Virus genome (UHGV): UHGV-0213312
Length of the DNA stretch: 33,285 nt
Strand: one strand, 5' to 3'
Origin: a virus
In this document: positions 1 to 33,285 of the stretch, piece by piece
Layout: the number at the start of each line of letters is the position of its first letter
Position numbering within the stretch: position 1 is the stretch's first letter
Program-made: the position numbers and the translations under genes
Notes under the pieces: generated by a model
What the model saw: the letters and a program-made list of their open reading frames with translations, nothing else
Database searches by the model: none
Told to the model about the DNA's origin: nothing

Positions 1-63
1 ATTGCGACCGTTCGGTGGCAATTTTTCTTAGCCTTTCCTGGCGGGCGCGGAAAGGAATTTAAA

Positions 64-1002
64 ATGACAAGACGAGTTTTCAATTACGGTGGTGGTATGC
101 ACAGCCCAGCAGCTCTGACACAATTTTTACGAGATGCGCTTGACGGTGACGTGGCAAATGGCATGGAAGTGGTTGCTGGTAGTGGCATGAACGTCACAGT
201 TAAAGCAGGGACGGCTTCGGTTGGTAAAGATCCCTCGTATGACATCAATATCGTAGGGACTGAGACGGTTAGTATAGGTGCAGCGTCGCCATCAAATCCA
301 ACGAACACGTTGATCGTGGCTTATGTTGACCGCAGTGTTTCTGGAAGCACGGCTGTGACAGACAACACCAACGATGTGTTTAAGCTGAAAGCAGTTTCTG
401 GTGCAGCAGCCGCGACGCCATCAGACCCTACCGTGTCAGCAGTTCAAGCAGCAATTGGCGCAGCAAATCCGTATATTGTATTAGCGAGAGTGCTCAAGCG
501 AGCGGGCGCGACATCAATCATTGATAGTGACATTACTGATTTGCGAAAAATGATCACGCTGCGAGATGGCAGGATCAATAAACCAGAGATTATATCCGAT
601 GGTACGATAGTTTCAGGGCATATTAAAGATGGTTCAATCCTACCGCAAAAACTATCGTCAGCAGCCCGCGGCGACCGCAGCACATCAGAAGTCGACACTG
701 GTATGAAATGGATCGATGGCCGCACAATTTATCAGAAGACGTTTGCGATGGGCGGTTTGAAGGTCGCCAGCAAAACAACCGTGCCGCATGGTATCAAGAA
801 TCTTGATATGGTTATTAATATTCGCGGCATTGCAAAGGAAGATAGCATCGGTGCAACAATCAACCTGCCGCACGCTGCCGACCAGCAAGCTTATACAGTG
901 ACAGTTTACGCCGATAATAGCAACATCAACATTCAAACATACGCCGATCAATCTGGATATCGAACATCATTCGTGACGATTCAATACGTGAAGAAGACCT
1001 AA
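64..1002 (+). CDS. Tail fibre / receptor-binding protein (constant N-terminus plus current C-terminal cassette A)
   Basis: 312-aa ORF that follows the minor tail genes across the circular junction. C-terminus 'STSEVDTGMKWIDGRTIYQKTF..TVPHGI..' resembles phage fibre tip domains. Contains repeats at 603-644 that recur inverted at the heads of two silent cassettes. Confidence 0.8.
   Translation: MTRRVFNYGGGMHSPAALTQFLRDALDGDVANGMEVVAGSGMNVTVKAGTASVGKDPSYDINIVGTETVSIGAASPSNPTNTLIVAYVDRSVSGSTAVTDNTNDVFKLKAVSGAAAATPSDPTVSAVQAAIGAANPYIVLARVLKRAGATSIIDSDITDLRKMITLRDGRINKPEIISDGTIVSGHIKDGSILPQKLSSAARGDRSTSEVDTGMKWIDGRTIYQKTFAMGGLKVASKTTVPHGIKNLDMVINIRGIAKEDSIGATINLPHAADQQAYTVTVYADNSNINIQTYADQSGYRTSFVTIQYVKKT
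603..630. repeat. Inverted repeat IR-C, left copy (28 bp)
   Basis: TACGATAGTTTCAGGGCATATTAAAGAT is the exact reverse complement of 3884-3911. Confidence 0.95.
628..644. repeat. Inverted repeat IR-B, left copy (17 bp)
   Basis: GATGGTTCAATCCTACC is the exact reverse complement of 1363-1379. Confidence 0.95.
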
Positions 1003-1480: not shown

Positions 1481-1534
1481 TGTGCTATAATATAGACATA
1501 GGAAATTGCGATCACAAAATGTGGTCGCTTTTTT
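1481..1534 (+). promoter_or_regulatory. Extended -10 promoter plus leader hairpin/U-tract (lysis operon copy)
   Basis: TGTGCTATAAT (1481-1491), then GCGATCACA-aaa-TGTGGTCGC followed by TTTTTT. Confidence 0.75.
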
Positions 1535-1546
1535 ATTGGAAAAATT

Positions 1547-1930
1547 ATGAGCAACACAGACGTATCAGCAAAAGAATTTGGAGCCTTGCAGGCGAATGTT
1601 GAGCATATTAAAGAAGATGTTATCGAGATTAAAGATATTGTGCGCAATCAAGACTCTGTTAGCCGGCGAGAATATCAAAAGCTGGCTGACCTCGTTGAGC
1701 AGCAATCTGGACGACTCAATACAATCGAGAAGAACCTGGGTATTAATGAGGCTACTTTTACGGGTCAGATGAAACGGTTTATGGATAAGCATGTTGCAGC
1801 TGTATTTAGTAGCGCATTGATGCTTATCGTTATTTGGGCGCTATATGCAACACAATCATCGCAGATCGAACGGTTGAAAACCGATTTGAATATAACAAAC
1901 GAAACTGTTCGGTCAAGAGAAAATAAATGA
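1547..1930 (+). CDS. Lysis-module membrane protein (coiled coil plus one TM helix)
   Basis: Heptad-like N-terminus, hydrophobic 'AAVFSSALMLIVIWALYA'; first gene of the cassette ending in the endolysin. Confidence 0.6.
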   Translation: MSNTDVSAKEFGALQANVEHIKEDVIEIKDIVRNQDSVSRREYQKLADLVEQQSGRLNTIEKNLGINEATFTGQMKRFMDKHVAAVFSSALMLIVIWALYATQSSQIERLKTDLNITNETVRSRENK

Positions 1931-3952: not shown

Positions 3953-4023
3953 ATATCCGAACAGGACAGAGCAAATTAGCCTCAAACTACTATTAGTTTA
4001 ATGGGGCTATTTTTGTTTTTAGA

Positions 4024-5923: not shown

Positions 5924-5931
5924 TAAAATGT

Positions 5932-5997
5932 AGATTCGCAGAAATGCGAGTCTTTTTAATTTGTATCAAGACCAGCATTTCGCTGGTCTTTTATTTT
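5932..5997 (+). terminator. Two tandem intrinsic terminators after the tRNA
   Basis: AGATTCGCA-gaaa-TGCGAGTCT+T-run and AAGACCAGC-atttc-GCTGGTCTT+T-run. Confidence 0.75.
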
Positions 5998-10157: not shown

Positions 10158-10164
10158 AAACAAC

Positions 10165-10297
10165 GTTGACCTCTCAAAGCTGCGGGTAGTATCGCAATTT
10201 TAGGATAGCTTTTATCAAAGCACCTAGTACCTTTTTGACGCTATCCGCACCTCTGGTGGGTGTAAATAGTAAGAGCCCGCAGCTCTGAGAGGTCAAC
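10165..10297. repeat. 22-bp inverted repeat (1 mismatch) enclosing 89 nt
   Basis: GTTGACCTCTCAAAGCTGCGGG (10165-10186) versus CCCGCAGCTCTGAGAGGTCAAC (10276-10297). Confidence 0.9.
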
Positions 10298-10329
10298 AAA
10301 ATAATAGCACAATAGCAGGGAGGAAAAAT

Positions 10330-10482
10330 ATGAAGCTATTAAAAATGTTAGTCGGTAGAATACGCGACTGGCGATCCCGACGAGTTTATGAAAGGCTGTC
10401 CGATGAGGCAGTTGAAGAACAGTTGAACAAATTAACTGACAATAAATATTTGGATAGATTTTCAGGAGGTAGCCGTGGATAG
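10330..10482 (+). CDS. Small hypothetical protein (50 aa)
   Basis: GGGAGG SD; MKLLKMLVGRIRDWRSRRVYERLSDEAVEEQ... Confidence 0.6.
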   Translation: MKLLKMLVGRIRDWRSRRVYERLSDEAVEEQLNKLTDNKYLDRFSGGSRG

Positions 10483-10920: not shown

Positions 10921-11159
10921 TGTCTCTGATGAATTGCGCATTCACTGTTCGCTGGAGCGACGAGAAGAACAAACCGCACGCGAAAACCTACGCTACCGAA
11001 TCTGATGCCAAGCGAGCCAAGAAATGGTTGCTGGAGCACGGCGTTCGGAGCGTAGACATCGCGGTCAAGATAAATAATAAGCCAGTTGGTAGTTTGGAAG
11101 ATGGCGACAAGCCGTCTGAGACTGACGCTGAGCAGAAAGGATTTTGGTGGGAGAAGTGA
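10920..11159 (+). CDS. Hypothetical protein
   Basis: GGAGG SD; 79 aa. Confidence 0.65.
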   Translation: MSLMNCAFTVRWSDEKNKPHAKTYATESDAKRAKKWLLEHGVRSVDIAVKINNKPVGSLEDGDKPSETDAEQKGFWWEK

Positions 11160-12418: not shown

Positions 12419-12483
12419 TCGGGACACATAAACGCCACTAACTAACGACCTACCATACGTCGAAAAACTGGGCGAACATTAAC

Positions 12484-13154
12484 AATTCAACCGCATAACT
12501 GGATAGATAATTGTAAATCAGATGGTAGAGCCGTGTTGCAACACGTACGCGACGGTGGTTCGAGTCCACCCAATTGTCTATTCAACTGGACAGATGATAT
12601 GTATTGTGCAGGGAAAGACCAGATAGCTTCTGGTGCTCGTTTCGTTTACGTGCTGGACGCAGTAACGGTTCATATTGTCATATGAACTATCAACAACCCC
12701 GCCGCCTCTCAGGAGAGTATGAGACAAGATATCTTGGCGCGAGTGAATAAAATCGTCTGTTCAACTGGTAGCACCAACGCACCTTTAATTGTTACTTAGG
12801 GAAAAAATTGTATACCTATTTATAGCTATTCTAAACAACTATATTTTGGTGCTATCAACTGGCAACATCATCAAGACAAATTAACCATATTAGTGCTATA
12901 CACCTGGTGTTGTCAACTGGCTATATAAGTGGCTCGAAAGCTTGAAGCTGAGCTTAGTGTTGCAGCTCGCGAAGTTCCGCAATTAGAGCTAGAAAAGTAA
13001 CTGCTGACTTTGCAACTTGAGTAGTGAAAGATGTGACCTTACACGACGCAGCTTAGTCTTTTGACTAAACGGTGGAAGCCCTGTGGTGAAAATCCCGTAA
13101 GACAGTGCGTGCAAATCATCGCCTTATATAGCCAACCAGTTATGCGGTTGAATT
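12484..13154 (+). ncRNA. Candidate structured RNA array: five stem-closed cassettes inside a 19-bp inverted repeat
   Basis: No ORF >=60 aa; repeated CAACTGG junctions; each unit has self-complementary ends with G-U pairs on the + strand. Confidence 0.65.
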
Positions 13155-13187
13155 AAACCGCACGATTTCGTGTAAATAAGGAAAATT

Positions 13188-15477: not shown

Positions 15478-15523
15478 TGTTATAATAGCCCTAGGAATTG
15501 CGGATCGAAAGAGCCGCTTTTTT
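15478..15523 (+). promoter_or_regulatory. Extended -10 promoter plus leader hairpin/U-tract (terminase copy)
   Basis: TGTTATAAT, then AATTGCGGATCGAAAGAGCCGC followed by TTTTTT. Confidence 0.75.
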
Positions 15524-15539
15524 ATTTGGAGAAATTATC

Positions 15540-16118
15540 ATGGCAACCAGAAAAATGACGCGCAGGAACAGGCGAAGTAGCAAGCAGTCTAGCCGCAAAT
15601 CCCCAAAGCAGCAGTTGCGAGGGATTGTTAAGGACAAGCCAAAAAAGCCGCCTGTCAAGCCATCAAAACAGCCTGAACAGCCAGAGCCAGGACAGCCGAC
15701 GAAATACAAGCCAGAGTATTGCCAGCAACTCATTGACTATTTCTCGATTGAACCGCTTAAGATTGTCGCAGAGCAGAAAATAATTGGCACCGAGGGCGGC
15801 AAATACGTCTCGCGCCGCCTGCCACAACGTTTCCCGTGGTTTGAAGGCTTTGCCAGAAAAATTGGCGTTCACCGCAATACACTGAAGAATTGGTGTGCTG
15901 AGCATCCAGAATTCGCTGAGGCATACGATACCGCCAAGGATTTGCAACGCGAGTTCATCGTCGACGTGGCTTTGAGTGGTGCTGCACCGCCAAGCTTTGC
16001 TATCTTTACTATGAAAAACGTTTGCGGCTGGCGAGACGAGCGAGACCTGAAGCTGAGAAAAGCTAAAGAGGAAGGTGATATTGATGACGACGAGCTCAAG
16101 GCAGCCATCTTTGAATAA
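15540..16118 (+). CDS. terS: Terminase small subunit
   Basis: 'GQPTKYKPEYC', HTH 'FARKIGVHRNTLKNW..HPEF', 'IFTMKN'; directly precedes TerL; GGAG before ATG 15540. Confidence 0.85.
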   Translation: MATRKMTRRNRRSSKQSSRKSPKQQLRGIVKDKPKKPPVKPSKQPEQPEPGQPTKYKPEYCQQLIDYFSIEPLKIVAEQKIIGTEGGKYVSRRLPQRFPWFEGFARKIGVHRNTLKNWCAEHPEFAEAYDTAKDLQREFIVDVALSGAAPPSFAIFTMKNVCGWRDERDLKLRKAKEEGDIDDDELKAAIFE

Positions 16119-17643
16119 TCTCACCAGAGCGGATATTCTGCGGCTTTGCGACAAATACTGGAACACTGACCGCGACAAGCTGCGCCGCTATCTGCTAGCG
16201 ATATTCAAGCGGCGGGAGAATATTCATCTGTTCGGCTGGTTCATCGCACGGCCGTATTTTCCTTTGGAAACGCCGCCATTCCATAAAGAGATATTAGACC
16301 TAATCAGCAACAAGGAAAACCGACGAGTTGGTGTTATCGCACCGCGTGGACACGCGAAATCGACCACGGTGGATATGACATATCCTTTGTGGGCTGGCTG
16401 CTTTGAGCAGGAAGAATTCGTAGTGATAATCAGCGATACTTACACGCAGGCGGCTGAGTTTATCAACGCATTGAAAGATGAGTTTGAGCACAATCCAAAA
16501 ATCAAGTGGCTATTCGGCAATATGAGAGGCGATGATTGGCAAGATGGTGAGTTCGTATTGAGTAATGGCATTAAATACGCCGCCAAGGGTTCTGGCATGA
16601 AAATCCGCGGTATTCGCCACCGACATACCCGACCAACACTAATGATATTTGACGACATCGAGAACGACGAAAATATCAAGAGCGCCGAGCAACGCCAGAA
16701 GCTATATCACTGGTTCACCAAGGCGGCGATACCAGCATTAGCGAGAGGCGGGCGGGCTGTCATCATCGGCACTATCCTACACTTCGATAGCCTTGTGAAC
16801 AAGGTGATGAAGCAGCAAGATGTATTTAAGAGCTGGCAAACGCGGGTGTTTTACGCAATCACTACCGAGGAGGACGGCACAGAGCGGGCTTTGTGGCCGG
16901 AGCACCGCAGCCTTGAAAAATTAAGAGCTATGCGAGATGACCCGAGCGATCAGGAGTTCGTTGGCAGCATTGCTTTTGCGCAGGAGTATCAGCACAAGCC
17001 ATTCAGCGAAGAGGACGCTATCATCAAGCCTGATTGGATTAAAGAGTGTGATCCGAGCCAGGTACCAAATAAGCATGCACGGCTAGCACGAGTGCTGACA
17101 ATCGACCCTGCCGCCAGTGAACGCCAGACGGCCGACCCAACCGCTATGGGTGTCGCTGACCTGTACACCGACGGCAATGTCTATATACGTGCGATACGCA
17201 ACCAACGAACCTCGCCGAGTGTTACTGCTGATACGGTAAGGGAGCTTGATGAAATATACAAACCGCAGGTGATTGGCATAGAAGAGGGCGCGCTGGGGCT
17301 GGTGTTTCGGGATTTGCTGGCGGGATTGCCTGTCATTGGTTTAAAGCCTGATAAGGACAAAGTGCGGCGACTCTTAGCTGTGAGCCGATTCTTTGAGGCT
17401 GGCAGGATATACATCGTAAAGGATATTCAGAATGGGCAAGCGTTACGCGAGCAGCTGATTGAATTTCCGAAGGGGACGCATGATGACATGGTGGACATGG
17501 TGGTCTATGCGGTGCGGTTGCTGTTGGTAGAGGGAGCAGTCCAGGACTCTGACGGTTTTGATGAGAGCGGGGCGTACCACGAGAAGAGAAGTATGGATGA
17601 TGAAGATGAAGAAGATTGGTCGGATGATGATTATGTGGTATAA
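16075..17643 (+). CDS. terL: Terminase large subunit
   Basis: Walker A 'APRGHAKST', Walker B 'MIFDDIE', nuclease 'TIDPA' and 'HDDMVD'. Confidence 0.95.
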   Translation: MILMTTSSRQPSLNNLTRADILRLCDKYWNTDRDKLRRYLLAIFKRRENIHLFGWFIARPYFPLETPPFHKEILDLISNKENRRVGVIAPRGHAKSTTVDMTYPLWAGCFEQEEFVVIISDTYTQAAEFINALKDEFEHNPKIKWLFGNMRGDDWQDGEFVLSNGIKYAAKGSGMKIRGIRHRHTRPTLMIFDDIENDENIKSAEQRQKLYHWFTKAAIPALARGGRAVIIGTILHFDSLVNKVMKQQDVFKSWQTRVFYAITTEEDGTERALWPEHRSLEKLRAMRDDPSDQEFVGSIAFAQEYQHKPFSEEDAIIKPDWIKECDPSQVPNKHARLARVLTIDPAASERQTADPTAMGVADLYTDGNVYIRAIRNQRTSPSVTADTVRELDEIYKPQVIGIEEGALGLVFRDLLAGLPVIGLKPDKDKVRRLLAVSRFFEAGRIYIVKDIQNGQALREQLIEFPKGTHDDMVDMVVYAVRLLLVEGAVQDSDGFDESGAYHEKRSMDDEDEEDWSDDDYVV

Positions 17644-17702
17644 TCAAAGCATGAATTGCGGTTATCACAGCCGCATTTTTCTTTTTGGTCTAGGGTAGCC
17701 GC
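17634..17702 (+). promoter_or_regulatory. Extended -10 promoter plus leader switch (portal copy)
   Basis: TGTGGTATAAT overlaps the terL stop; TGCGGTT-atcac-AGCCGCA then TTTTTCTTTTT; alternative partner GGTAGCCGC at 17694-17702. Confidence 0.75.
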
Positions 17703-17723
17703 CTTATTGCGAGGAGCAAAGCA

Positions 17724-20693
17724 GTGGCATTTTTTAGAAAGAACAACCCAGAATCGACACAAAAAAATCTAACAAGTGAAATCGGCTTTGCCGGCGACAT
17801 TGTATTTGAGGGTTTTGACCGCGAAGAGTCACGTATTGACGAAATTAGCATCAAAGACTATCGTAAAATGCTTGATAATGATACGACGGTCGAAGCGTTG
17901 TATAACATCTTTACTATGAGCATTCTGGCAGCGACATACCATATTGACGCCGATAGTAACGATGAGGGGGAAGTACAAGCTGAGCTGGTACGGCGCAATC
18001 TACTAGAGCCACCACATAAGGGCGGAATGCAAACGCCAATGAGTCTGTTTATTGATCAATCTCTAGCGGCGATTTATGAAGGCTTCGCGCTGTTTGAAAA
18101 AGTCTATGAAGTGCGAGACGGCAGATTAGTACTCAAGAGGCTAGCGCACCGCGACAGTACCACGCTCACACTCATTCGTGACACGGATGGTGGCTTTGGC
18201 GGAACAAAACAGCGCGCTGCTGACTCCGATGGTGTTTATCACGAGGTGATTATTCCAGCACACAAATGCTTCCTGTTTACGTATGGCAAGAGCCGCAATT
18301 ATCTTTACGGCCGCAGTGCGTTCAAGCCACTGTATCCACGCTACGACAAGAAGCGTCGACTAGAGTATCTGGACAGTATTGCCTTGCAGGCTGATGCTAT
18401 CAAACCGAAAGTTTTGCGGCGTACCGCTGACGGCGTCGTCTCTGATCAGCTAAAGAAAGCACGAAATAAGGCATTGGATGTGTTAGGCAGACTAGGCAAG
18501 CGTAACTCCGTGGCGTCGTTACCATATGGCTATAAACTTGATGTGTTGAATACAGAGGGTCGTGATCCGCACCAGTCAATCGAACGGCAAAACTCGGAGA
18601 TGGCGCGTGCGTTTCATGCGAGCGTTATCCTTACTGCAACGCAAGGCTCGGCAAGTAATGTTGGCTCGTACAGCCTGAGCACCAACCAGAAGGACCTACT
18701 ACAAACAGCAATCACTGGTGTTATGCGGCTATTGGAAGCGCATATCAACCAATACCTCATCGCCGACCTCATTGACTTGAATTTTGCCGAACGACACTAT
18801 CCAGAATTTCATTTCGATACACCAGACGAATCGATTATCTCGGCGGTATTTGAGGCGTTCAAATTGCTTGTGCAAAAAGACAAGGTGTCAGATGATATTG
18901 CTGCTGGAATCGAGGAATCAACAGCGACACGCCTTGGCATTGACCTGGAGGCGATCAAAAAGCGGCGGCAGGAAGATACGGAAGATGACAAGGCCGCTGG
19001 TAAAGAGAACGAAAACGCGGATGATAACAAAGATGGAGGTTCTGGCGACGACGCCGGCAAATTTCTAGGCGAAGACGACAAGCTTGGCGAAGTTGCTCCA
19101 CCTGAGCCGCACGAGCATGTTGCGATTGACCGAGATTTGACCGACGCCGAGAAGCGCGTTAAGTTTGATGTGATCGAAAAGTGGATGGCTGAGCAGGAGG
19201 CGAGTTTTGAAACCGCAGCGACCGAGGAACTGCGTAAAGCGGTGGCTGATATCTCGCTCGATGAGGAGTTCACGCTGCCAGCTAGCTATTCTGCGCTGCT
19301 GGCAAAACAATATCGCACAGCTTACAACTACGGCAAGCTATCCGCGGCAGATGAGCAGAAGCTGCCAGCACCAGTTCTGAAAAAGGAGCTGAGGGCGCGA
19401 GAAAAACAATACGTGGATTTCATTATCAATATGCAGACTGAAGACGTGCGTAATATTATTGCTGGCGAGAAGTTGAAGCAGCCTATTAACTTGGCTGACG
19501 GTGACGGCGAGGACATTGATGAAGAATCTGGAGCACCTAACACTAGCGGTAAACAGGACGAAGCTGCCCGCAATACGATGTTGGAATCAATCGGGTTATT
19601 GACGAGTGCCTGGATTACTCAAGCAGTACTCGGCACTAAAGGCACTATTATCTCACAAGGTATGAACGATGGGCGTGATGATAGTTTTGCGTCGTTTGAT
19701 GAAGATGACGACACGGCTGCCTATCAGTGGTCGGCGCGGATGGAGAAAAACACCTGTCCAATTTGCGCCGAGCTAGACGGCAAGGTGATTTCTGCCAACG
19801 AACGCAGAACTACGTTCCAGCGTCCGCCAAAGCACATCAACTGTGGTTGCATTTGGGTGAGGGTGTCGGCGCTAAACAAGGACTATAAGTTGCCGGCGGT
19901 AACAGGGATTGATAATAAGCTCATTGAGCGGCTGGAATATATCCAGAGAACAACTAAAGCTGAGCTGGCAAGTACGATACCTGGGGCACTGAAATACACA
20001 AAGGCTGAACTATCGAGCATTGAGTCGTATAAAGGGAATGGATACATCAACATCAACCAGGCGCTGTTGGGCAATCATCCTATGAATCCGTATGCTGAGG
20101 CTGATATTAAACAGCTGGATAAAGCGATTAAAAAAACAAAGTTGGAGAAAGATATCGTACTATATCGCGGTATCGGGCTAGAATCAAAATTGTCGATTAA
20201 CGATATCGTTGATAATCCTAATTTTCTCTCTACTTCTACTAGCCCAAGAATATCGATAGAGTTTGCACAGCAGTCTGAAGCGAATAAATATGTGTTTATT
20301 TTCAGAGCCCCAAAGAATATGCCATATTTGGACATTGAAAAAACATTGGCAGATAATAATGTCAATTCAACAATTAACGAACGAGAATATTTACTGTCGC
20401 GAGGCAAGAAGCTTGTTGTAAAAAACCTCTCAAAGAGGGATAATGGAGTTATAGTAGCAGAGGTGGAGATGACGGACGATACAAAATACTTGGATGACAG
20501 CAACGACAGTATCCTCACTGAGGGTTTACTGAGGGAGATTGACGAATCGTACGAGCGCTCCAAAAAGCGCCTTGCTGATCCAAATTACAAACCGAGCCAA
20601 ACAGCCAGGCGCCTACATCACATCTGGCAAATGGACTCTGACTACTTTAATGAGCACCCTGAAGCTATCAAATCCAAAGATAACGATGAATAG
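17724..20693 (+). CDS. Portal (Mu gp29/DUF935-like) fused to a MuF head-morphogenesis domain and a C-terminal ADP-ribosyltransferase
   Basis: Position after terL; MuF motif 'TCPICAELDG..PPKHINCGC'; ART motifs 'SYKGNGYININQALL', 'LYRG', 'FLSTS', 'EREYLL'. Confidence 0.85.
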   Translation: MAFFRKNNPESTQKNLTSEIGFAGDIVFEGFDREESRIDEISIKDYRKMLDNDTTVEALYNIFTMSILAATYHIDADSNDEGEVQAELVRRNLLEPPHKGGMQTPMSLFIDQSLAAIYEGFALFEKVYEVRDGRLVLKRLAHRDSTTLTLIRDTDGGFGGTKQRAADSDGVYHEVIIPAHKCFLFTYGKSRNYLYGRSAFKPLYPRYDKKRRLEYLDSIALQADAIKPKVLRRTADGVVSDQLKKARNKALDVLGRLGKRNSVASLPYGYKLDVLNTEGRDPHQSIERQNSEMARAFHASVILTATQGSASNVGSYSLSTNQKDLLQTAITGVMRLLEAHINQYLIADLIDLNFAERHYPEFHFDTPDESIISAVFEAFKLLVQKDKVSDDIAAGIEESTATRLGIDLEAIKKRRQEDTEDDKAAGKENENADDNKDGGSGDDAGKFLGEDDKLGEVAPPEPHEHVAIDRDLTDAEKRVKFDVIEKWMAEQEASFETAATEELRKAVADISLDEEFTLPASYSALLAKQYRTAYNYGKLSAADEQKLPAPVLKKELRAREKQYVDFIINMQTEDVRNIIAGEKLKQPINLADGDGEDIDEESGAPNTSGKQDEAARNTMLESIGLLTSAWITQAVLGTKGTIISQGMNDGRDDSFASFDEDDDTAAYQWSARMEKNTCPICAELDGKVISANERRTTFQRPPKHINCGCIWVRVSALNKDYKLPAVTGIDNKLIERLEYIQRTTKAELASTIPGALKYTKAELSSIESYKGNGYININQALLGNHPMNPYAEADIKQLDKAIKKTKLEKDIVLYRGIGLESKLSINDIVDNPNFLSTSTSPRISIEFAQQSEANKYVFIFRAPKNMPYLDIEKTLADNNVNSTINEREYLLSRGKKLVVKNLSKRDNGVIVAEVEMTDDTKYLDDSNDSILTEGLLREIDESYERSKKRLADPNYKPSQTARRLHHIWQMDSDYFNEHPEAIKSKDNDE

Positions 20694-20712
20694 TTGTTGC
20701 TAGCATAGCCTT

Positions 20713-20769
20713 TGTGGTATAATAGTCGTAATGAATTGCGATCGCATGTAGGTCGCAATTTTTCTTTTT
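20713..20769 (+). promoter_or_regulatory. Extended -10 promoter plus leader switch (capsid operon copy)
   Basis: TGTGGTATAAT, AATTGCGATC-N7-GGTCGCAATT, then TTTCTTTTT. Confidence 0.75.
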
Positions 20770-20893
20770 GACATCGGAAGTTACCCTCTGTGAATTACTC
20801 TTGAATAATTGCAACACAAACATTTTACAGTTGATATTGTAAAACTCCACTTTCTCGCCTGCGTGCGGTCGCGGTTCAGCCAGGAGAAATCAT

Positions 20894-22027
20894 ATGAGTA
20901 TGCATGTTTTCATCAATCGAGACACAAAGGTAGAGCTAGCCGACAATGAGGGCGGTAAATATAAGCGTTTCAAGAAGCAGATTTGTCAGTTCGGTGAGTA
21001 TGTTGATCCAAACAACACCTCAAAAAGGATGGTGCTTGATAAGCTATTTGGAAAACGGCTGAAAGAGAACTTTGACGGCGGCAAATATGGCGTTGTGGCA
21101 GTGCCACTGGGTCATCCTAGGAATTCGTCCGAGCTGGCGGCTTGGAATAGAGGTGAAATGGTCAATATGGAGCTGACTGACGATGGAATCAACGCTGTCA
21201 TCGAGATACGAGACGACGAGACCGCAAAGAGTATTGAGAACCGCAATATTCCTGATGTATCAATGGGCTTTGAAGACAATTACCTCGACAAAAAGACCGG
21301 CAAATTTGTCGGGCCGCTATTGAAGCATGTCGGGCTGGTTGTCGACCCGTACATCAAAGGTATGCGGCGGTTTGTGCCGCTTGCCGATGAAGTACCGGCA
21401 GTATTGTTTAGTGATAGTCAAGATTATGAAAAGGAGGACAAGACTATGACAGTAAAAATTAAGAATGACCGCGAGTTTGATGTTGAAGTAACCTACGCGG
21501 TTGACGGAGAAAACAAAACCGAAACGGTCGCTGCTGGTGCTGAGATTGAAGTGCCAGAAGACCAAGCAGAAGCTGTGAAGCAGCAAATCGCCGACGCTGA
21601 AGCGCCAAAAGATAATGACAAAGAAAACGAGTTGTCTGAGCGCGAGAAAGCATTGGCTGATCGCGAAGCTGTGCTGGCAGAAAAGGAAGCTGCAGCAGCA
21701 AAGCGCGACGCTGAGGCGAAATTCAATAAGTTACTGAGTGATGGCAAGGTAGTGCCGGCTCAAAAGGACGCATTCATGGCGTTGTCTGAGGCATCAAGCA
21801 CTGAAATCCACCTATCTGATGATGAAACCAAGACCGTTGATACGTTATTAAGTGAGTTTATCGAGGCAAGTCCAAAGCTGAACTTGACCGACGAGAAAGG
21901 AACTGACGGCGAAGGCAACGGTGGCGGTGATGAAGTTCAGCTAAGCGAGGACGAACAAAGCCTGACAGACCTCGGCTTGAGCGAAGAAGATTTGAAAGAA
22001 ACTAAACGTCAGGAAAAGGGAGAATAG
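20894..22027 (+). CDS. Mu gpI-like prohead protease/scaffold
   Basis: 'H..AAW..G', 'VSMGF', 'LKHVGLV..PYIKGM'; acidic helical C-terminal half; position before the capsid genes. Confidence 0.8.
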   Translation: MSMHVFINRDTKVELADNEGGKYKRFKKQICQFGEYVDPNNTSKRMVLDKLFGKRLKENFDGGKYGVVAVPLGHPRNSSELAAWNRGEMVNMELTDDGINAVIEIRDDETAKSIENRNIPDVSMGFEDNYLDKKTGKFVGPLLKHVGLVVDPYIKGMRRFVPLADEVPAVLFSDSQDYEKEDKTMTVKIKNDREFDVEVTYAVDGENKTETVAAGAEIEVPEDQAEAVKQQIADAEAPKDNDKENELSEREKALADREAVLAEKEAAAAKRDAEAKFNKLLSDGKVVPAQKDAFMALSEASSTEIHLSDDETKTVDTLLSEFIEASPKLNLTDEKGTDGEGNGGGDEVQLSEDEQSLTDLGLSEEDLKETKRQEKGE

Positions 22028-22030
22028 CAA

Positions 22031-22408
22031 ATGGCTAATCTAACAGCTCCGCGAGACGACAGCCGACAAACCGGTGATTTGGTTGAAGTTGATGCGGGAA
22101 CAAATAAGATTTTTCACGGCGCTGCCGTGACAATCGCAAGCAACGGCTATGCACATGCTGGCGCTCCAAAAGAGCCTTTTGTAGGTGTCGCTCAGGAGTC
22201 CGTAACTGGTGGACTGGTGCGCGTGTACACTGAGGGTGTGGTGAGCTTTAACTGTGCGGCTGCTGTCGGTGTTCAAGCGAACGTAGGCAAGAATGTCGCG
22301 CTCGTTGATGACAATACTGTCGGTTTGGCAACAGGCAATGACGCTGTAGCCATCGGGATTATTACTAAAATTGAATCGACTACATCGGTTCGAGTTAAAC
22401 TACGATAG
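22031..22408 (+). CDS. Capsid cement/decoration protein (DUF2190-like)
   Basis: Small Gly/Val/Ala-rich beta protein between the scaffold and the major capsid gene. Confidence 0.7.
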   Translation: MANLTAPRDDSRQTGDLVEVDAGTNKIFHGAAVTIASNGYAHAGAPKEPFVGVAQESVTGGLVRVYTEGVVSFNCAAAVGVQANVGKNVALVDDNTVGLATGNDAVAIGIITKIESTTSVRVKLR

Positions 22409-22421
22409 AAAGGAATAGAAA

Positions 22422-23276
22422 ATGAGTTTGAATCCTACACAGCTCGGTCGCGCGGACCTGTACGTCAAGACAATTTTCCGCAAAGCAATGAGCGAAGAGT
22501 CGAACGACATAGCTAAAGATTTGTATACCATTACTCCAAACAAATCTGGTTTTGCGCGGATTTTGAACCTAACCGCCGTACCAGGCATGAGGCGTTGGGA
22601 GAGTGAGCGTCGACCAGGCACGTTCTCGTTCAACGTGGAGATGCAGAAAATTGGTAAATGGGAGCAGTCTGTTGCCGTTGACGGTGCAGATATCGAAGAC
22701 GACGAGCTTGGCATTTACAAATCAGGTATTGAAGAAATGGCTCTCGAAAACAAGTTGATGTACTCAGCCTTGGCTATCGAGGCTATCAACAAGGGCTTCG
22801 TCACGAAGTCTGGCGATGGACACAACTTCTTCTCTACTGAGCACGGCAACCTACAAACTGGTGACCTGACAGCTGCTAATTACGAAGCTGCTCGCCTGAA
22901 AGTCCAGACTCAGAAAGCTGAAAACGGCAAATCGTTTGGCTATCTCGTCGACACTTTGATCGTTGGACCAAACATGGAAAGCAAGGCGCGTGCTGTTGTC
23001 GAGAAAGAGAATCTTGCTGGCGGGGAAAGTAACACTAACTACCACACCGCAAAGATTTTGGTTATTCCGCAAATTACAGATAATAGCTGGTATGTTGCCT
23101 GCCTGAGTCGAAAGGTTAAGCCAGTTGAAGTGTGTGAACGCCGCCCAATTGGAAAGCTGCGCCAAATCCTGAAAGATCGCCAGGAAGACCAGGACGTCTA
23201 CACTTGGGGTACTGACGGTCGCTTTGACGCTGCGTATGCAAATTATCGATTAATTGCCGGTTCGGTGGGTTCTTAG
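22422..23276 (+). CDS. Major capsid protein (Mu gpT-like)
   Basis: 'VPGMRRW', 'DIEDDELGIY', 'DGHNFFSTEH', 'LIVGP', 'WGTDGR'. Confidence 0.9.
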   Translation: MSLNPTQLGRADLYVKTIFRKAMSEESNDIAKDLYTITPNKSGFARILNLTAVPGMRRWESERRPGTFSFNVEMQKIGKWEQSVAVDGADIEDDELGIYKSGIEEMALENKLMYSALAIEAINKGFVTKSGDGHNFFSTEHGNLQTGDLTAANYEAARLKVQTQKAENGKSFGYLVDTLIVGPNMESKARAVVEKENLAGGESNTNYHTAKILVIPQITDNSWYVACLSRKVKPVEVCERRPIGKLRQILKDRQEDQDVYTWGTDGRFDAAYANYRLIAGSVGS

Positions 23277-23285
23277 GAGGAAATC

Positions 23286-23465
23286 ATGGAAGATCAGCCA
23301 AAATCTGAAAACAAGAAAGCTCCAGAGCAGACCAGCCAGCCAAAATCTGAAAACAAGAAAGCTGAAAAAGCCTTCTGGGTTGATGGATTTGGCGTAACAA
23401 TGGCTAAATCGCAAGAGGCAGCTGAGAAGAAAGTTAAAAACATTCTTTCTGAGCAAAGCGAATAG
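23286..23465 (+). CDS. Small head-associated protein (59 aa) with an internal duplication
   Basis: AGGAGG SD; QPKSENKKA occurs twice (27-bp direct repeat at 23295 and 23337). Confidence 0.65.
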   Translation: MEDQPKSENKKAPEQTSQPKSENKKAEKAFWVDGFGVTMAKSQEAAEKKVKNILSEQSE

Positions 23466-23529
23466 CTTTCTGACACGGCGGCGGATAGGAGCATTTCCGC
23501 CGCCAGAATGAGAAAGGTATAAATTGCAG

Positions 23530-24231
23530 ATGACAGCGTATTACACAACACTACAAGACATACTCGAAGAGGCGGGTTTGCACCACGTTGAAAACGGCGT
23601 GTCCCTGAGCGGCCCAGCCGACGGCGTAAATACAACATTTACGACCGACCGCAAACCTATTACTGATCGTAATTTTGATGACGCAGTTACAGTTGATGAT
23701 TTTACTGTGTTTGTTGACGGTGTGCCAGTTAAGGCTGTTAGCGTAAATGAGGCGTTTGGTGTGATTGAGCTAGAAAAGGCACCAAAGAATGATTCGGTAG
23801 TGACAATCGACTATTCATATGCGTCTGTGCCGCTACGCGTGGTTGAACTGGCTCGCAAGGCGGCAATGGCTTGGATTGATAAGAGTATGGAGGGAGTTGA
23901 TCCCTGCGCGCCGTACGGCAAGTATGGCCGCGAGATACCAGGCAGGGTGGTGGAGCTGTGTACTAACTATGCGGCCGCTCGATTGCTGATCCGTGAATAC
24001 GGCTTTAACCAGGACATTGAGGGCACGAGCAAAGATGGCTATAAGCGGCTAGAGGTAGTAAAACAGGATATGCAAGAGTTTGTGAAATCTGGTGGTGTTT
24101 GCGGTGACGGCAGCGATGACCTGAGCGCTGGGCTTGGCGCTGTTGGTGCGCGATGTGACGGTGATTTGTTCGGTGATTTCCCAGACAGACGGCATCCGCG
24201 CAATGACGACTACTATGAGCGCGAGGATTAA
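23530..24231 (+). CDS. Head-tail connector/adaptor-like protein
   Basis: Position; 'YTTLQDI' N-terminus and 'IP..VVELC..YAAARLL' adaptor-like motifs around a beta-rich insert. Confidence 0.65.
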   Translation: MTAYYTTLQDILEEAGLHHVENGVSLSGPADGVNTTFTTDRKPITDRNFDDAVTVDDFTVFVDGVPVKAVSVNEAFGVIELEKAPKNDSVVTIDYSYASVPLRVVELARKAAMAWIDKSMEGVDPCAPYGKYGREIPGRVVELCTNYAAARLLIREYGFNQDIEGTSKDGYKRLEVVKQDMQEFVKSGGVCGDGSDDLSAGLGAVGARCDGDLFGDFPDRRHPRNDDYYERED

Positions 24232-24234
24232 GCT

Positions 24235-24642
24235 ATGGGCTTGCAGCTGGTATTCTCTGTTGAGGGACGCAAAGAAGTTTTGCGGGATTTAGATACGCGT
24301 GGGCGTAAAGCTAAAAACCTACAAGCACCGCTTAAAGAGTCCGCAGATTACATGATGAAAGTCATCGACCAGAACTTTGGCTCGCACGGTGGCGTGTGGG
24401 GCAAGTGGAAGCGACGCAAAAAGGCATATCCGTGGCGGATGCTCGAGAAAACTGGCGCAATGCGGCGTGGTTTTCGCAGTAGTATATACACGAAAAAAGC
24501 AGAAATATCTAACTTGCGCCCATATTTTAAGTATCATCAGTCGCGCCAACCGCGTAAATATCTGCCGCGCCGCGTAATGATGGCGATTGAGGAGCAGCAA
24601 GCAAGAGAAATAACGCGTATATTTCAGCGCCACATAATGTAA
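24235..24642 (+). CDS. Virion morphogenesis / tail completion protein (Mu gpG-like)
   Basis: 'LEKTGAMRR', 'YFKYHQ', 'LPRR'. Confidence 0.8.
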   Translation: MGLQLVFSVEGRKEVLRDLDTRGRKAKNLQAPLKESADYMMKVIDQNFGSHGGVWGKWKRRKKAYPWRMLEKTGAMRRGFRSSIYTKKAEISNLRPYFKYHQSRQPRKYLPRRVMMAIEEQQAREITRIFQRHIM

Positions 24643-24654
24643 CAGGAGGAAATC

Positions 24655-25164
24655 ATGGCAAAGTATGTCGATCCAATACTCAAGCAAATCAAGGACATCT
24701 TAGAAAAAGACGGCCCGGCAATTCTGCGTGGTCGGTATGGTTATGGCGACCCCGTTGTCATAAACAAAAGCCAGCTGACACGGCCGATGGCGTTTATTAG
24801 TTTTGATAATGATTATGAGATTCACGATTCAGCCGGCGGCGAAGTTGAGAGTAATATGGCGATCGTCTTGTGCGTAGTCGTGGATATGACCAAGGACTTC
24901 AATCAGGGGACAGATGCGCGCAGCCATCTTGAGCTGGTGGAACTAGTAGCGGCACGGCACGACGATATGACACTACGAAAGGGCAGTATTATCGGCGCGC
25001 TGAGAGCTAATCAAGACCCAGGTGAGCGTGTGTGGATTGATGCCGGCGAAGAGACAACAGTGGAGTTTGACGCGACACCACGCGACAAAGGGCTGTTCAC
25101 CGCCGAGGCTATTGTACGGTTCAAGGTTAAACACGCGCAATTCCGCCCAGACTTATTATCGTGA
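24655..25164 (+). CDS. Tail terminator-like protein
   Basis: Size and position before the tail tube gene; strong SD. Confidence 0.55.
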   Translation: MAKYVDPILKQIKDILEKDGPAILRGRYGYGDPVVINKSQLTRPMAFISFDNDYEIHDSAGGEVESNMAIVLCVVVDMTKDFNQGTDARSHLELVELVAARHDDMTLRKGSIIGALRANQDPGERVWIDAGEETTVEFDATPRDKGLFTAEAIVRFKVKHAQFRPDLLS

Positions 25165-25165
25165 T

Positions 25166-25245
25166 TGTGGTATAATTAGAGTAACAAATTGCGGTCTCCG
25201 AAGGTCGCAATTTTCTTTTTGCCTCTTTATAGGAGGCGCTTTTTT
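25166..25245 (+). promoter_or_regulatory. Extended -10 promoter plus leader switch (tail tube copy)
   Basis: TGTGGTATAAT, AAATTGCGGTCT..AGGTCGCAATTT, TCTTTTT; alternative partner GGAGGCGC at 25232-25239. Confidence 0.75.
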
Positions 25246-25276
25246 GTTACCTAGGTAATAATAAAAGGAGCAAGAA

Positions 25277-26272
25277 ATGCCAACATTTTCAGGACGAAAA
25301 GTTGCCGTCGGTATCGGGCTGGAAGATCCGAACGACAAAGGCAAAGCAGTCGCGCCAACGTATGGTGCGCCACACCTCGATATTAGTTTTAAGGATTCGC
25401 CAACCAGCAAGATGAACGAGTCGGCGCTCGGCACGATCATCAAAAATAATGGTAAAACCGACGTGCTGGTAGAGGGCGACGGCTCGATCTCGACGAAGTT
25501 GTGGGTCAAGGGGCTGTACTACTGGCTGGCGCTAGCATTTGGACAGAAACCAACCACCACTGGTGTACAGGGTGATACTACCGCTAAAGAGCATCTGTTT
25601 ACGCTGAGGGACGACAACAACCACATCTCGGCGACCATGACGATTAAAGAGCCGAACCTATCAGCGCAATTCGCCTACGCTATGGCAGATTCTGTAACGT
25701 TTACATGGACACCTGACGACTTTCCAAAAGTGGAAGTAGCGTTTAAGTCACATAAAAGCAAAGAAACTAATAGCAGTAATGTAACATACACCATCGATGA
25801 TACTGAATTCCTACCGAAGCACGCGATGTTTAAGATTGCGGATGATCTTGCAGGGCTTGATGCGGCGCCTGAGGCAAAAGACATTAAGAGCCTGACGCTA
25901 ACGATCACTAAAAACTTGCAGCCGCAGCAGACTATGGATTCCAAGGACACCTACGGCGAGATTTTGAACGGCGAACTCGAAGTGTCAATATCCATCGAGA
26001 AACTGTACCGCGATAAAACCTACCGCGCAATGAGTTATAACGACGAGCGCAAGGCGTTGCGAGTAGCGTTTATTGATGATAAGAACAAGGCTGGCACGAA
26101 AACCAACACCAGCTTGACGTTCGACATCGCGGTTGCGGCATTCAGCGGCTATGAGCCAAGCTACGGTGTGAGCGACATTGCCACCGAGAAAATCGATGCA
26201 GTTATGTTGCTCAACACGGCTGATTTTAACAAATCGATTACTGCGAGATTGGTTAATAAGTACACCTATTAG
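25277..26272 (+). CDS. Major tail tube protein
   Basis: 'VGIGLE..G.AVAPT', 'VEGDGSI', 'EHLFT'; upstream of the chaperone and tape measure genes. Confidence 0.8.
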   Translation: MPTFSGRKVAVGIGLEDPNDKGKAVAPTYGAPHLDISFKDSPTSKMNESALGTIIKNNGKTDVLVEGDGSISTKLWVKGLYYWLALAFGQKPTTTGVQGDTTAKEHLFTLRDDNNHISATMTIKEPNLSAQFAYAMADSVTFTWTPDDFPKVEVAFKSHKSKETNSSNVTYTIDDTEFLPKHAMFKIADDLAGLDAAPEAKDIKSLTLTITKNLQPQQTMDSKDTYGEILNGELEVSISIEKLYRDKTYRAMSYNDERKALRVAFIDDKNKAGTKTNTSLTFDIAVAAFSGYEPSYGVSDIATEKIDAVMLLNTADFNKSITARLVNKYTY

Positions 26273-26290
26273 TAATGGTTTGCTGAATAG

Positions 26291-26317
26291 AAAAGCCCGC
26301 AGGTTATGCGGGCTTTT
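26291..26317. terminator. Bidirectional intrinsic terminator
   Basis: AAAAGCCCGCA-ggtta-TGCGGGCTTTT between convergent genes. Confidence 0.85.
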
Positions 26318-26319
26318 AT

Positions 26320-27351
26320 TTATCGTCGGCGATAACTCTCGCAGGCAACACCGTCGCCGTCTCTATCGAGGTTTGGCGAATAGCCAGGCTCGCCGCGGCG
26401 CATATTGCTGTAGCCTGCGGCGTGTGCCTCTTTGCAGCTGCTGAAACTTACATCACCACCAGGTTGAGTCTGCTGCGGAGCGGGAGCAGCGGGTACGGCT
26501 GGTTGTGCTACTGATTTTTCCGTATCGCCAGAGCAGGTAGTCGGCGACCACAAGCCCTTGTTTTCCTCTCGCGCTAGTCGCTGAGCTTCGCGAAATTGTG
26601 ACTGCCACCTGTGTGGGTTTGAATTGTATGTGTATTCATGCCCGTAACCCTCGCGGATCATCGTGTAGGCGACATTTGTGCCGTCCTCAAGATAGACGTA
26701 GAATAAATCACGGCCGTATTTGTCTCTGCTACTTTGGGTGGTGTCAGCAACTAGATAAACAGTTTTGCCGGCTACCAGATCGTTCATTTTTTGGGACGCC
26801 TCTTTACCAAAGCATTGAACAGGTTTGCGTGGGTGCTTTGTTTCTGGGGTGTCAATTCCAACAAGGCGTATTTTATTGTGTTTTGATGTGCGGATCGTAT
26901 CGCCGTCTATTACTTCTGTTACAGTATCTTTCTCACCTTGCTTGAAATTGACATCTTGAGCTAGCTTATCATCGAACTTTGGCGTCTCTGGCTTTTTTTC
27001 TGGCTGTTTTTGTTGCGACTGTTCGTTTTTAGTTTGCTGAGTGTTGGCGGATTGCTTTTCTGCTTCGCGAACTTGAGTCAGCATGGGTCCTCCTATACTA
27101 AATAAGACAACAACGAGACAGAAGGCTACGACACGAGAAATCTTGGATATTTTCTTCCACTTAAAAATAGTGATTCCGAGTAGTATGATGCTGGCGAGCA
27201 TTAACGTTGTAGCTACGGACTCTTTTAGCCCGCTTGGCAGCCAACATAGGAATATAAGAATTATTGCGACAATGAACCATATTGGTGTCAACTTTCTCCA
27301 ATCTGGTCTGTTATCGTTTGTATTTTTATTGATAGGTTTCAGTGATTTCAT
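26320..27351 (-). CDS. Membrane-anchored thermonuclease (SNase) with C-terminal Excalibur domain; moron
   Basis: Three N-terminal TM segments; 'VIDGDTI', 'IRLVGIDTPE', 'DKYGR'; 'CKEA..AG...GEPGYSPNLDRDGDGVACE'. Confidence 0.9.
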   Translation of the reverse strand: MKSLKPINKNTNDNRPDWRKLTPIWFIVAIILIFLCWLPSGLKESVATTLMLASIILLGITIFKWKKISKISRVVAFCLVVVLFSIGGPMLTQVREAEKQSANTQQTKNEQSQQKQPEKKPETPKFDDKLAQDVNFKQGEKDTVTEVIDGDTIRTSKHNKIRLVGIDTPETKHPRKPVQCFGKEASQKMNDLVAGKTVYLVADTTQSSRDKYGRDLFYVYLEDGTNVAYTMIREGYGHEYTYNSNPHRWQSQFREAQRLAREENKGLWSPTTCSGDTEKSVAQPAVPAAPAPQQTQPGGDVSFSSCKEAHAAGYSNMRRGEPGYSPNLDRDGDGVACESYRRR

Positions 27352-27373
27352 ATTATGAATTATAGAAGCAATT

Positions 27374-27446
27374 TGGTATAATACAAGTAATAAGTTGCGA
27401 TCGCTTCGGTCGCAATTTTTCTTTTGCCACAAGAGTGGTCGCTTTT
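27374..27446 (+). promoter_or_regulatory. Extended -10 promoter plus leader switch (tape measure operon copy)
   Basis: TGGTATAAT, TTGCGATCG-ctt-CGGTCGCAA, TTTTTCTTTT; alternative partner GTGGTCGC at 27435-27442. Confidence 0.75.
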
Positions 27447-27463
27447 AATTAAGGAGGCTACTC

Positions 27464-27742
27464 ATGCAAGACACGAAAACTATCCAACTACCAAGCGGAG
27501 GGGAGGCGGTTTTACGAACGGCGATCACTAATCGTACACGAAAAGAATTTGCAAAAGCTAAAGACGATATCGACTTAGCTATTGAGCTGGGGCTCAAGGC
27601 GGTGTTGCTGCGATATAAGGATGCCGACGGATCAGACGCTGCTTACGAAGCATTGATGGATTCAACTAGTGGTGAAGACTTCAATGTGATTTCTGAATCC
27701 TTGCAAGAAATTTTGGATCCTAAATCAAGCCCAAAAGGATAA
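27464..27742 (+). CDS. Tail assembly chaperone (gpG-like)
   Basis: AAGGAGG SD; precedes the tape measure gene; ends at a slippery site. Confidence 0.8.
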   Translation: MQDTKTIQLPSGGEAVLRTAITNRTRKEFAKAKDDIDLAIELGLKAVLLRYKDADGSDAAYEALMDSTSGEDFNVISESLQEILDPKSSPKG

Positions 27743-27957
27743 CCACGCTTGCGCAAGACTACGAGCGGGCGTATCGAGCAAAAACTGCAGTTCCAGAACC
27801 GATAGTAATCGTAGGAATTCTCAAAGACTACGGCTGGACATATGAGGAGTATCTGGACACGCCCGAGTGGATTATAGAGGCAATCATGGCGAAGCGTGCT
27901 GTTGAGAATAAATTAGAAGCTGAGTCCTATAACAAACTAGCGAAGGGGCGTAGTTAG
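27464..27957 (+). CDS. Tail assembly chaperone, -1 frameshift product (gpGT-like)
   Basis: C CCA AAA heptamer at 27730-27736; the -1 frame runs RITTLAQDY...YGWTYEEYLDTPEW...KGRS* to 27957, 2 nt before the tape measure ATG. Confidence 0.8.
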
Positions 27958-32857: not shown

Positions 32858-33273
32858 ATCGAGTTAATTCGCAGCCAAATCTCTTGCGTGAATTGAAAGA
32901 TTTGGAGCGCCGGCAGCGCGAGAAAAAAGAGTTGCAGATTGTCGGAGCGGATGCCGTCAGGACGTTTTTGATAAAAACAGGGAATACGTGGGACTGCGAC
33001 GAAACATTACCGCTATCTCCTGATTTGACACGTCAGAGAGAATTTATAGTAACATTTTGCCCAAATAATAAGGCCGCAGGATTGGATTTACATGTAAAAA
33101 GCGAACTGGTTGGAGTACCGAATGTTAAGCCATGGATAACATCTGTACGCCGACGCGTGACAGACATAAAATCGCAACAATGGCGTGTACGAGTTGAGTA
33201 TTACGGAGACCAGGCTGTGAGGGTTAAGTTTTTTGTCTCGGCGACAGGTAGAGGAACGTTATCTGTGATATAA
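32848..33273 (+). CDS. Minor tail protein (paralogue 3)
   Basis: GAGGAG SD; N-terminal 'ELKDLERRQREKKELQIVG'. Confidence 0.6.
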   Translation: MVVNRVNSQPNLLRELKDLERRQREKKELQIVGADAVRTFLIKTGNTWDCDETLPLSPDLTRQREFIVTFCPNNKAAGLDLHVKSELVGVPNVKPWITSVRRRVTDIKSQQWRVRVEYYGDQAVRVKFFVSATGRGTLSVI

Positions 33274-33285
33274 TAGAGTCAATAA
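33264..33285 (+). promoter_or_regulatory. Extended -10 promoter of the tail fibre gene (element continues at 1-48)
   Basis: TGTGATATAAT overlaps the last stop codon; joined to position 1 it gives the usual 12-nt spacing to TTGCGACC-gttc-GGTGGCAA followed by TTTTTCTT. Confidence 0.75.

Follow-up and report, generated by a model that had tools for sequence, protein, structure and literature searches.

The window analysed here is the whole 33,285-nucleotide (nt) stretch UHGV-0213312, the circular 33 kb genome of a temperate siphophage whose late genes are preceded by seven related leaders. A candidate structured RNA of the same phage, encoded at 10165-10297, carries a single-stranded element complementary to the 5' end of every one of these leaders. 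On the sequence data, this RNA probably pairs with the nascent leaders, blocks the terminator-like hairpin in each of them and turns on the late genes for virion and lysis functions. The parts of this reading differ in strength. Pairing in trans between the RNA and the leaders is very likely, activation by antitermination is quite likely, and a hand-off of the leader to a second partner in cis is slightly favoured. The anatomy of the leaders, a conserved second helix, the fold shared by the RNAs and the match between seed and antisense strand in five phage groups can be read directly from the sequences.

Leader anatomy and the second helix

All seven late leaders follow a common plan, in which an extended -10 element (TGnTATAAT) is followed after 9-12 nt by an A(A/G)TTGCG seed, a hairpin (hairpin 1) and a U-tract. 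Five of them are termed two-state leaders, since their 5' arm has a second, downstream partner; the other two are termed simple. The +1 position was assumed to be the seventh base after the -10 hexamer. The features are as follows (RBS, ribosome-binding site).

15478..15542, + strand: simple leader of the terminase operon (terS by Pfam); extended -10 15478-15486, seed 15496-15504, hairpin, U6; no partner; RBS open
17636..17726, + strand: two-state leader of the portal(-MuF-ADP-ribosyltransferase) gene; -10 17636-17644, seed 17654-17662, hairpin 1, tail 17676-17685, partner 17694-17702
20715..20896, + strand: head operon leader (protease, cement, major capsid), two-state; -10 at 20715-20723, seed at 20734-20742, then hairpin 1 and tail, ~21-bp partner at 20858-20878, RBS at 20882-20888
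25168..25279, + strand: tail tube gene leader, two-state; -10 at 25168-25176, seed at 25187-25195, partner at 25232-25239 with U6 after it
27374..27466, + strand: two-state leader of the gene that precedes the tape measure gene; -10 27374-27382, seed 27393-27401, partner 27433-27442 within an RBS-masking hairpin
33266..33285, + strand: start of the tail-fibre leader, extended -10 promoter and first bases; continues at position 1
1..66, + strand: minor tail/fibre gene leader, two-state; seed, hairpin 1, tail (17-29) and partner (40-48), the latter in the loop of a hairpin (32-55) that masks the RBS
1483..1549, + strand: simple leader of the lysis cassette, assigned by its position before a CW_7/LysM gene; -10 1483-1491, seed 1504-1512, hairpin, U6; no partner

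The fibre leader runs from the promoter at 33266 on into position 1, and it was unbroken in the two relatives compared (G002 and G003). Going by its position, the gene before the tape measure gene would encode the tail chaperone. What all seven leaders share is the 5' seed (AAUUGCG), AAUU included, although in the two simple leaders the AAUU lacks a matching 3' arm. GCG was found at +8 to +11 in seven of seven, the spacing of the seed from the -10 hexamer is near-fixed at 9-12 nt, and the eight nt after each stem contain seven U. Judged by sequence, hairpin 1 and the U-tract have the geometry of an intrinsic terminator in all seven leaders, a layer that the first-pass annotation of this DNA had not named. 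A near-identical phage (capsid 99%) is present as a contig of a metagenome-assembled genome (MAG) titled Candidatus Saccharibacteria, and all seven occurrences of the promoter-and-seed pattern in this 600-kb MAG lie on the phage contig. The leader tails also contain a TTNTTT motif, which any U-run would match. They would fit the TTNTTT pause of NusG and a terminator with terminal A-U pairs, as described in the accessible part of the source (PMC8060035), and by analogy a NusG-type pause at the tail could buy time for the RNA.

The first-pass annotation had proposed that five leader copies carry a downstream partner for the 5' arm, mutually exclusive with hairpin 1. Indeed, all ten arm and partner strings were recovered in place, as were all four strings of the hairpins that it had drawn around two RBS. 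The family itself turned out to be larger, with seven leaders, five of which have a partner. We compared the best duplex of 5' arm plus loop with the downstream leader to the best duplexes in 1000 dinucleotide shuffles. The partner duplex beat the shuffles in all five two-state leaders (portal p=0.010, protease 0.001, tube 0.013, tail-chaperone 0.004, tail-fibre 0.033; Fisher-combined p = 3e-7), and neither simple leader gave a partner signal (p 0.97 and 0.63). Against random genome windows the values were p=0.008 for portal, 0.003 for protease, 0.033 for tube, 0.029 for tail-chaperone and 0.057 for fibre, so that the fibre leader is marginal in this comparison. The protease pairing, annotated before as nine nt, exists but is considerably longer; it spans ~21 bp (20732-20752 with 20858-20878) and is the minimum free energy (MFE) structure of the full leader.

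The second helix is also conserved in relatives, where it covaries in the orthologous portal and protease leaders. Across nine orthologous portal leaders 95% of the cells are paired, four of nine pairs show two-sided changes, and the score was reached by one of 500 shuffles. Twelve protease leaders are 96.7% paired over 21 bp, with two-sided changes in two of 21 pairs (2/500 shuffles). Within group 1 of the phage groups described below, no two-sided changes were seen in the portal hairpin 1, as expected if its 5' arm is fixed from outside. In the window, the tail GCA(A)TTTT(T)CTT marks exactly the partner-bearing copies, as noted before (five occurrences, in those five leaders). The rule does not extend to all relatives, since two group-5 leaders have partners with plain U tails. 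Among the group-1 leader variants, which are related and not independent, and with nine mis-delimited protease rows excluded, 62 of 66 with a C-interrupted tail reached p<=0.05, while 20 of 21 with a plain-U tail had p>=0.34. Partners also occur in phages with other seeds; they are strong in protease leaders and weak in several group-2 and group-3 leaders.

The folding predictions, together with covariation, give two states of the leader, one with the RBS masked and one with it open. With hairpin 1 in place, the predicted folds put the partner into a hairpin that covers the RBS, and this applies to all five two-state leaders, not only to the two for which masking had been proposed. The predicted cost of opening the RBS-start region drops from the hairpin-1 state to the partner state from 10.7 to 5.3 kcal/mol for portal, 9.6 to 2.1 for protease, 7.3 to 4.2 for tube, 12.1 to 3.1 for chaperone and 5.3 to 0.5 for fibre; in the simple leaders it is ~2.5 kcal/mol. 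Blocking the seed alone leaves the RBS closed in four of the five two-state leaders in the predicted folds, and a hand-off to the partner would therefore be needed. Shuffle test, covariation and predicted folds together support the earlier proposal of a two-state switch that involves a trans factor and a partner that frees the RBS.

A candidate trans-acting RNA with matched seeds

Since the 5' seed is the constant of all seven leaders, we searched for its complement. The search led to two nested features.

10165..10297, + strand: candidate activator RNA, a ~133-nt three-way junction; P1 10165-10187 with 10276-10297, single-stranded antisense, P2 10203-10209 with 10240-10246, P3 10247-10263, A-rich linker
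10188..10201, + strand: antisense element with core UAUCGCAAUU, the complement of the 5' seed in each of the seven leaders

The first strand of the junction, which is closed by a long stem, reads UAGUAUCGCAAUUU. P2 encloses a GYACMUU motif (10227-10233) that was seen in alignment A4 and is common to all five RNA types. The folding z-score of 10165-10297 is -7.9. In the window, the antisense strand forms duplexes of 9-12 bp with the seeds, with a net -8.6 to -11.1 kcal/mol after opening costs. RNAcofold predicted no binding (+4 kcal/mol), but it cannot model pairing into a closed junction, and duplex plus opening energies were used for this reason. By worst-case pairing the antisense site ties for first on the + strand of the window. 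Its sequence is identical in five of five close records searched, while the helices vary. The RNA locus lies among early genes, and the nearest leader is ~5.2 kb off in the direction of transcription of the RNA; across loci this distance is 1-6 kb. Other antisense sites were set aside: the one at 12977 is present in none of 37 relatives, the one at 8105 is coding and found in nine of 37, and those at 1009 and 3524 resemble the coding ends of tail-tip fragments in reverse orientation.

The first-pass annotation had placed the trans factor on the conserved 3' arm. The data point to the opposite arm, since the shared element is the 5' seed, and the phage RNA carries its antisense and changes with it in five groups. 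Pairing of the RNA with the 3' arms is weak (-6.8 to -9.3 kcal/mol), and the best non-coding site complementary to 3' arm plus tail (13024) was found in none of 37 relatives.

Rfam recognised only the tRNA in the whole window. A search of 10100-10400 at E<=1 gave one chance match (E 0.67), and ten loci with group 1, 3 and 4 RNAs gave no match. RNAalifold found no consensus pair on the MAFFT alignment A4, and the model R1 was consequently built on sequence only. In 151 genomes of the family of the MAG, R1 recovered the phage contig and three weak matches that fold differently; in distant TerL relatives it found nothing beyond RNAs of the training types.

Relatives gathered through capsid and terminase searches comprise five phage groups with five different seeds, each with the same RNA fold and its own antisense strand. 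In separate folds of seven representatives the order P1, 12-16-nt single strand, P2, P3 and linker was possible in all five types (z -2.5 to -10.3, with the antisense strand held open at a cost of 1.2-3.5 kcal/mol). Group 2 (G001, capsid 71%) has the seed AAYGURG and a syntenic RNA with GACUACGUU, the top + strand site of 40 kb. In group 3 (seed ACGG) the antisense sequence was predicted beforehand and found with wobble changes, and the best-ranking site outside the leaders belongs to an RNA of this fold directly ahead of the terS promoter. The advance prediction for group 4 was matched in nine of ten letters, and that for group 5 was met. The group-4 site had the best worst-case energy, whereas mean energy placed it sixth in one and fourth in the other of two scanned loci; elsewhere the antisense site ranked first outside the leaders (L146) or first (L226). 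In a five-by-five matrix of computed duplex energies, all 28 leaders paired best with the RNA of their own group, with group means of -11.2 to -16.1 for cognate and -2.3 to -8.7 for non-cognate pairs. In groups 1, 2 and 4 the RNA is located among early genes, near the recombination/single-stranded DNA-binding protein (SSB) module.

Groups 1 and 4 have the terminase and early genes in common and differ from the portal gene onward. Among 83 loci examined, 37 had both an RNA and a non-terS leader, and RNA type equalled leader type in all 37 (22 of group 4, 14 of group 1 and one of group 1 with both RNAs). The terS gene, which lies between the RNA and the late modules, is distributed over the two groups as in a random mixture (12 changes, against a mean of 12.4 after shuffling), and the shared terS leader pairs with group-1 as well as group-4 RNAs (-10.5 and -9.8). 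As the linkage of RNA and leaders persists although terS in between is freely mixed, these sequences point to a functional dependence of one on the other, with the caveat that terL is partly clustered by group. Two loci look like recombination intermediates: L304 contains both a group-1 and a group-4 RNA (at 2676 and 3154), and L285 combines group-1 portal and protease leaders with a group-4 tube leader.

Proposed mechanism and rival explanations

In our working model, host polymerase would fire at the extended -10 promoters and by default stop at about +32 to +40. During lytic growth the RNA, made from the early operon, would bind the emerging 5' end at nt +2 to +15. The location of the seed at the extreme 5' end would suit threading of a free end through the closed junction. 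With the 5' arm covered by the RNA, polymerase would read through, which would be sufficient for the simple leaders. In the two-state leaders the partner, an internal mimic of the antisense strand, would then displace the RNA and capture the 5' arm; this capture would break the RBS-masking hairpin and free the RNA for reuse. Leaky transcripts made without the RNA would retain both hairpin 1 and the masked RBS and would hence be doubly locked.

Several observations weigh against this model. The duplex is short (9-12 bp), the unpaired toehold measures few nt and only ~10 nt of elongation pass before the hairpin is complete; pause or protein help may therefore be needed. By mean duplex energy the antisense site of the window is not among the top 22, and the antisense strand of G001 is partly paired in the predicted ensemble (mean unpaired 0.29). 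In four of five leaders the partner state lies 3-7 kcal/mol above the hairpin-1 state and has to be trapped kinetically. The MFE structure of the protease leader is the partner state, so that its lock would not hold at equilibrium. Many partners in groups 2 and 3 are short and not significant (p<=0.05 in 2/4 and 6/17 variants). The group-3 RNA had been predicted behind the SLT gene, which was wrong, as it lies before terS; moreover, it has its own extended -10 promoter and would look constitutive in a lysogen. Regarding linkage, the loci include near-duplicates (32 different terS among 38), and in L307, which has group-4 leaders, no RNA was found in 9.4 kb upstream. The open reading frame (ORF) 9158-9445, which adjoins the RNA, co-segregates as well, and linkage alone is therefore also compatible with a protein.

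The tube and chaperone partners are directly followed by U6 and UUUUAAUU and resemble the 3' half of the simple leaders, and the partner helix is the MFE structure of the chaperone leader at a length of 54-69 nt. These features would be expected if antitermination works as in the model while the partner serves as the arm of a back-up terminator, or only to release the RNA, and is no translational switch. We consider this unlikely, because the portal, protease and fibre partners have no U-tract after them, the predicted OFF fold has the U-rich run paired to the RBS, and the cost of RBS opening drops in all five partner states.

The RNA might also pair with the seeds and repress. It would then be made constitutively, in the manner of an immunity RNA, and act by blocking the partner helix or by triggering decay, the late genes being activated otherwise. 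The seed-blocked folds with a closed RBS in four of five two-state leaders, the unattenuated promoter of the group-3 RNA and the fact that Pfam recognised no repressor in the window would agree with such a role, as would the precedent of the P1/P7 c4 RNA, a structured repressor according to the part of the source available (PMC12197685). However, binding to the 5' arm must break hairpin 1. The simple leaders (two of seven here, three of six in group 2) have no partner and an RBS that is already open, so derepression is the only structural effect the RNA could have on them. In groups 1, 2 and 4, furthermore, the RNA sits among early genes. Repression is thus rather improbable.

Pairing with the non-template DNA strand of an open or initially transcribing complex, with an effect on initiation or promoter escape, has little to recommend it. 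Complementarity cannot separate RNA from non-template DNA, and the near-fixed distance of 9-12 nt between seed and -10 hexamer would suit this idea. Yet a 5' position would also be needed for threading a free end through the closed junction, every seed forms the 5' arm of a hairpin that a U-tract follows, and the RNA partners of the seed covary. We give the least credence to the model of the first-pass annotation or its protein version, in which a protein binds the 3' arm with its tail, a site that the structured RNA would mimic as a decoy: the antisense strand does resemble the 3' arm, the tail UUUUUCUUU is found again in groups 1-4 and ORF 9158-9445 co-segregates, but the simple leaders retain the seed and lack the CAAUU half and the tail, the RNA has no tail, one protein family would need five specificities, and the tail would fit the NusG pause and terminator features cited above (PMC8060035, as far as its accessible part goes).

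Phage background, related systems and implications

The window encodes an integrase, recombination/SSB proteins, terminase, protease, a Mu-like capsid, tail tube, tape measure and a lysis cassette (Pfam/PHROGs). Saccharibacteria are the likely host of the phage family; this is likely and not proven, because the Saccharibacteria record is a bin. Directly behind the integrase, 5628-5990 contains a strong sigma70-type promoter leading into a structured leader (z -4.0), a full tRNA (Rfam) and two terminators, a layout shared with G001. Integration at this tRNA would part the promoter from the early operon. No helix-turn-helix repressor was recognised by Pfam among the window ORFs, and lysogeny control may for this reason be integration- or RNA-based. 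A basic 131-amino-acid (aa) ORF with its own promoter (4024-4419) precedes the integrase; it has group-3 homologues and no family match and is a candidate regulator. In the early region, 11144-12130 encodes a KwaB-like protein (Pfam and NCBIfam, under cut-offs), and G001 has one too. A 770-nt non-coding run (12420-13187) consists of cassettes between AACTGG-type repeats. It includes a tRNA-like element at 12507-12578 (24.6 bits, under threshold), and one cassette has flanks conserved in G001 and G002 with differing inserts.

Among the late genes, a single 989-aa ORF (17724-20693) is a fusion of Mu-like portal, MuF and ADP-ribosyltransferase domains (Pfam). A gene with SNase and Excalibur domains (26320-27432, - strand; Pfam) runs opposite to the late direction between the tube and chaperone genes. 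The chaperone ORF stops near AAGCCCAAAAGGATAA (27700-27760) and open sequence runs on to the tape measure gene, which we take to fit the frameshift pattern of tail chaperones. Two reversed fragments (1003-1380 and 3500-3985, - strand) resemble tail-fibre tips, each with a WIAIG-like end and located beside the tail gene or lysis cassette; they are possible cassettes for tail-tip exchange.

To our knowledge, late-gene control in phages is done by proteins (Q, sigma factors, activators, phage polymerases). In lambdoid phages, the constitutive late promoter pR' is closed by the terminator tR' and opened by the delayed-early product Q, a processive protein on polymerase. The system proposed here likewise has late promoters closed by a terminator and an opener of delayed-early type, but the opener would be an RNA instead of a protein and would serve seven promoters instead of one. 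No antiterminator protein of Q or N type was recognised in Pfam (44 ORFs), PHROGs (26) or NCBIfam (14), many small ORFs being without assignment. In T-box riboswitches a trans tRNA decides intrinsic termination by stabilising a cis antiterminator; here, in contrast, a dedicated RNA without Rfam match would cover the 5' arm of the terminator itself. The CI RNA of P4 is a structured phage RNA with antisense elements in single-stranded parts that represses and confers immunity. The accessible text on the c4 RNA of P1/P7 describes the same features, including phage specificity (PMC12197685). Both resemble our candidate in structure and in a specificity that varies between phages; they differ in that they repress, and the candidate has no Rfam match.

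The closest parallel in design is found in synthetic biology. Small transcription activating RNAs (STARs) are synthetic trans RNAs that bind a 5' linear stretch as well as the 5' half of an intrinsic terminator hairpin; orthogonal RNA/target pairs exist and one RNA can drive several genes, as stated in the available portion of the source (PMC5648800). The phage system has the same ingredients, namely a hairpin with poly-U upstream of the gene in seven of seven leaders, a separate RNA complementary to the linear stretch as well as the hairpin's 5' half, and orthogonal cognate pairs (28/28 by computed duplex energy). Unlike STARs, it is natural, carries its 9-12-bp seed on a three-way junction, targets the very 5' end and has an additional cis partner that would open the RBS. 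Terminator-opening RNAs are presented as engineered in the excerpt available of another paper (PMC12281614).

The nearest natural case is IsrK of the prophage Gifsy-1, a trans small RNA that, according to the accessible part of PMC4825925, shifts a leader from a translation-off to a translation-on fold (140-fold) and raises the read-through transcript ~8-fold. A trans RNA and two alternative leader folds, with RBS masked or open, are common to both. As far as the same text goes, however, IsrK is the terminated leader of its own mRNA and has one target, while the RNA described here comes from a separate locus and would act at seven promoters on the 5' terminator arm. RNA-only antitermination in mobile elements is represented by put of HK022 and canT of Tn916, the latter cis-only and processive in the portion of text available (PMC11658703); the Tn916 preprint, in its accessible part, concerns a split sigma factor. 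Here, each terminator lies ~35 nt behind its own promoter, and the RNA, 1-6 kb from the nearest leader, is sequence-matched to each. The system was not described in the literature searched, which covered few subscription papers, and motifs without function may be contained in the supplementary lists of PMC10690425.

Taken as a whole, we marginally favour the view that this is a natural STAR system. One guide-like RNA with an exchangeable seed on a three-way junction would run the whole late regulon by antiterminating seven promoters, after which a cis mimic would take over and open the RBS, and the existence of at least five orthogonal seed classes would restrict the early and late modules that recombination can bring together in a viable phage. 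In the parts of the literature available, RNA activation in which the 5' arm of an intrinsic terminator is covered appears as an engineered device. A natural version, if true, would add both a developmental switch and a regulatory RNA of a new class. It would also offer synthetic biology five orthogonal RNA/leader pairs with very short targets. For the phages themselves, it would mean that RNA-RNA epistasis structures a recombining population, and it would provide a first handle on gene control in the phages of Saccharibacteria.

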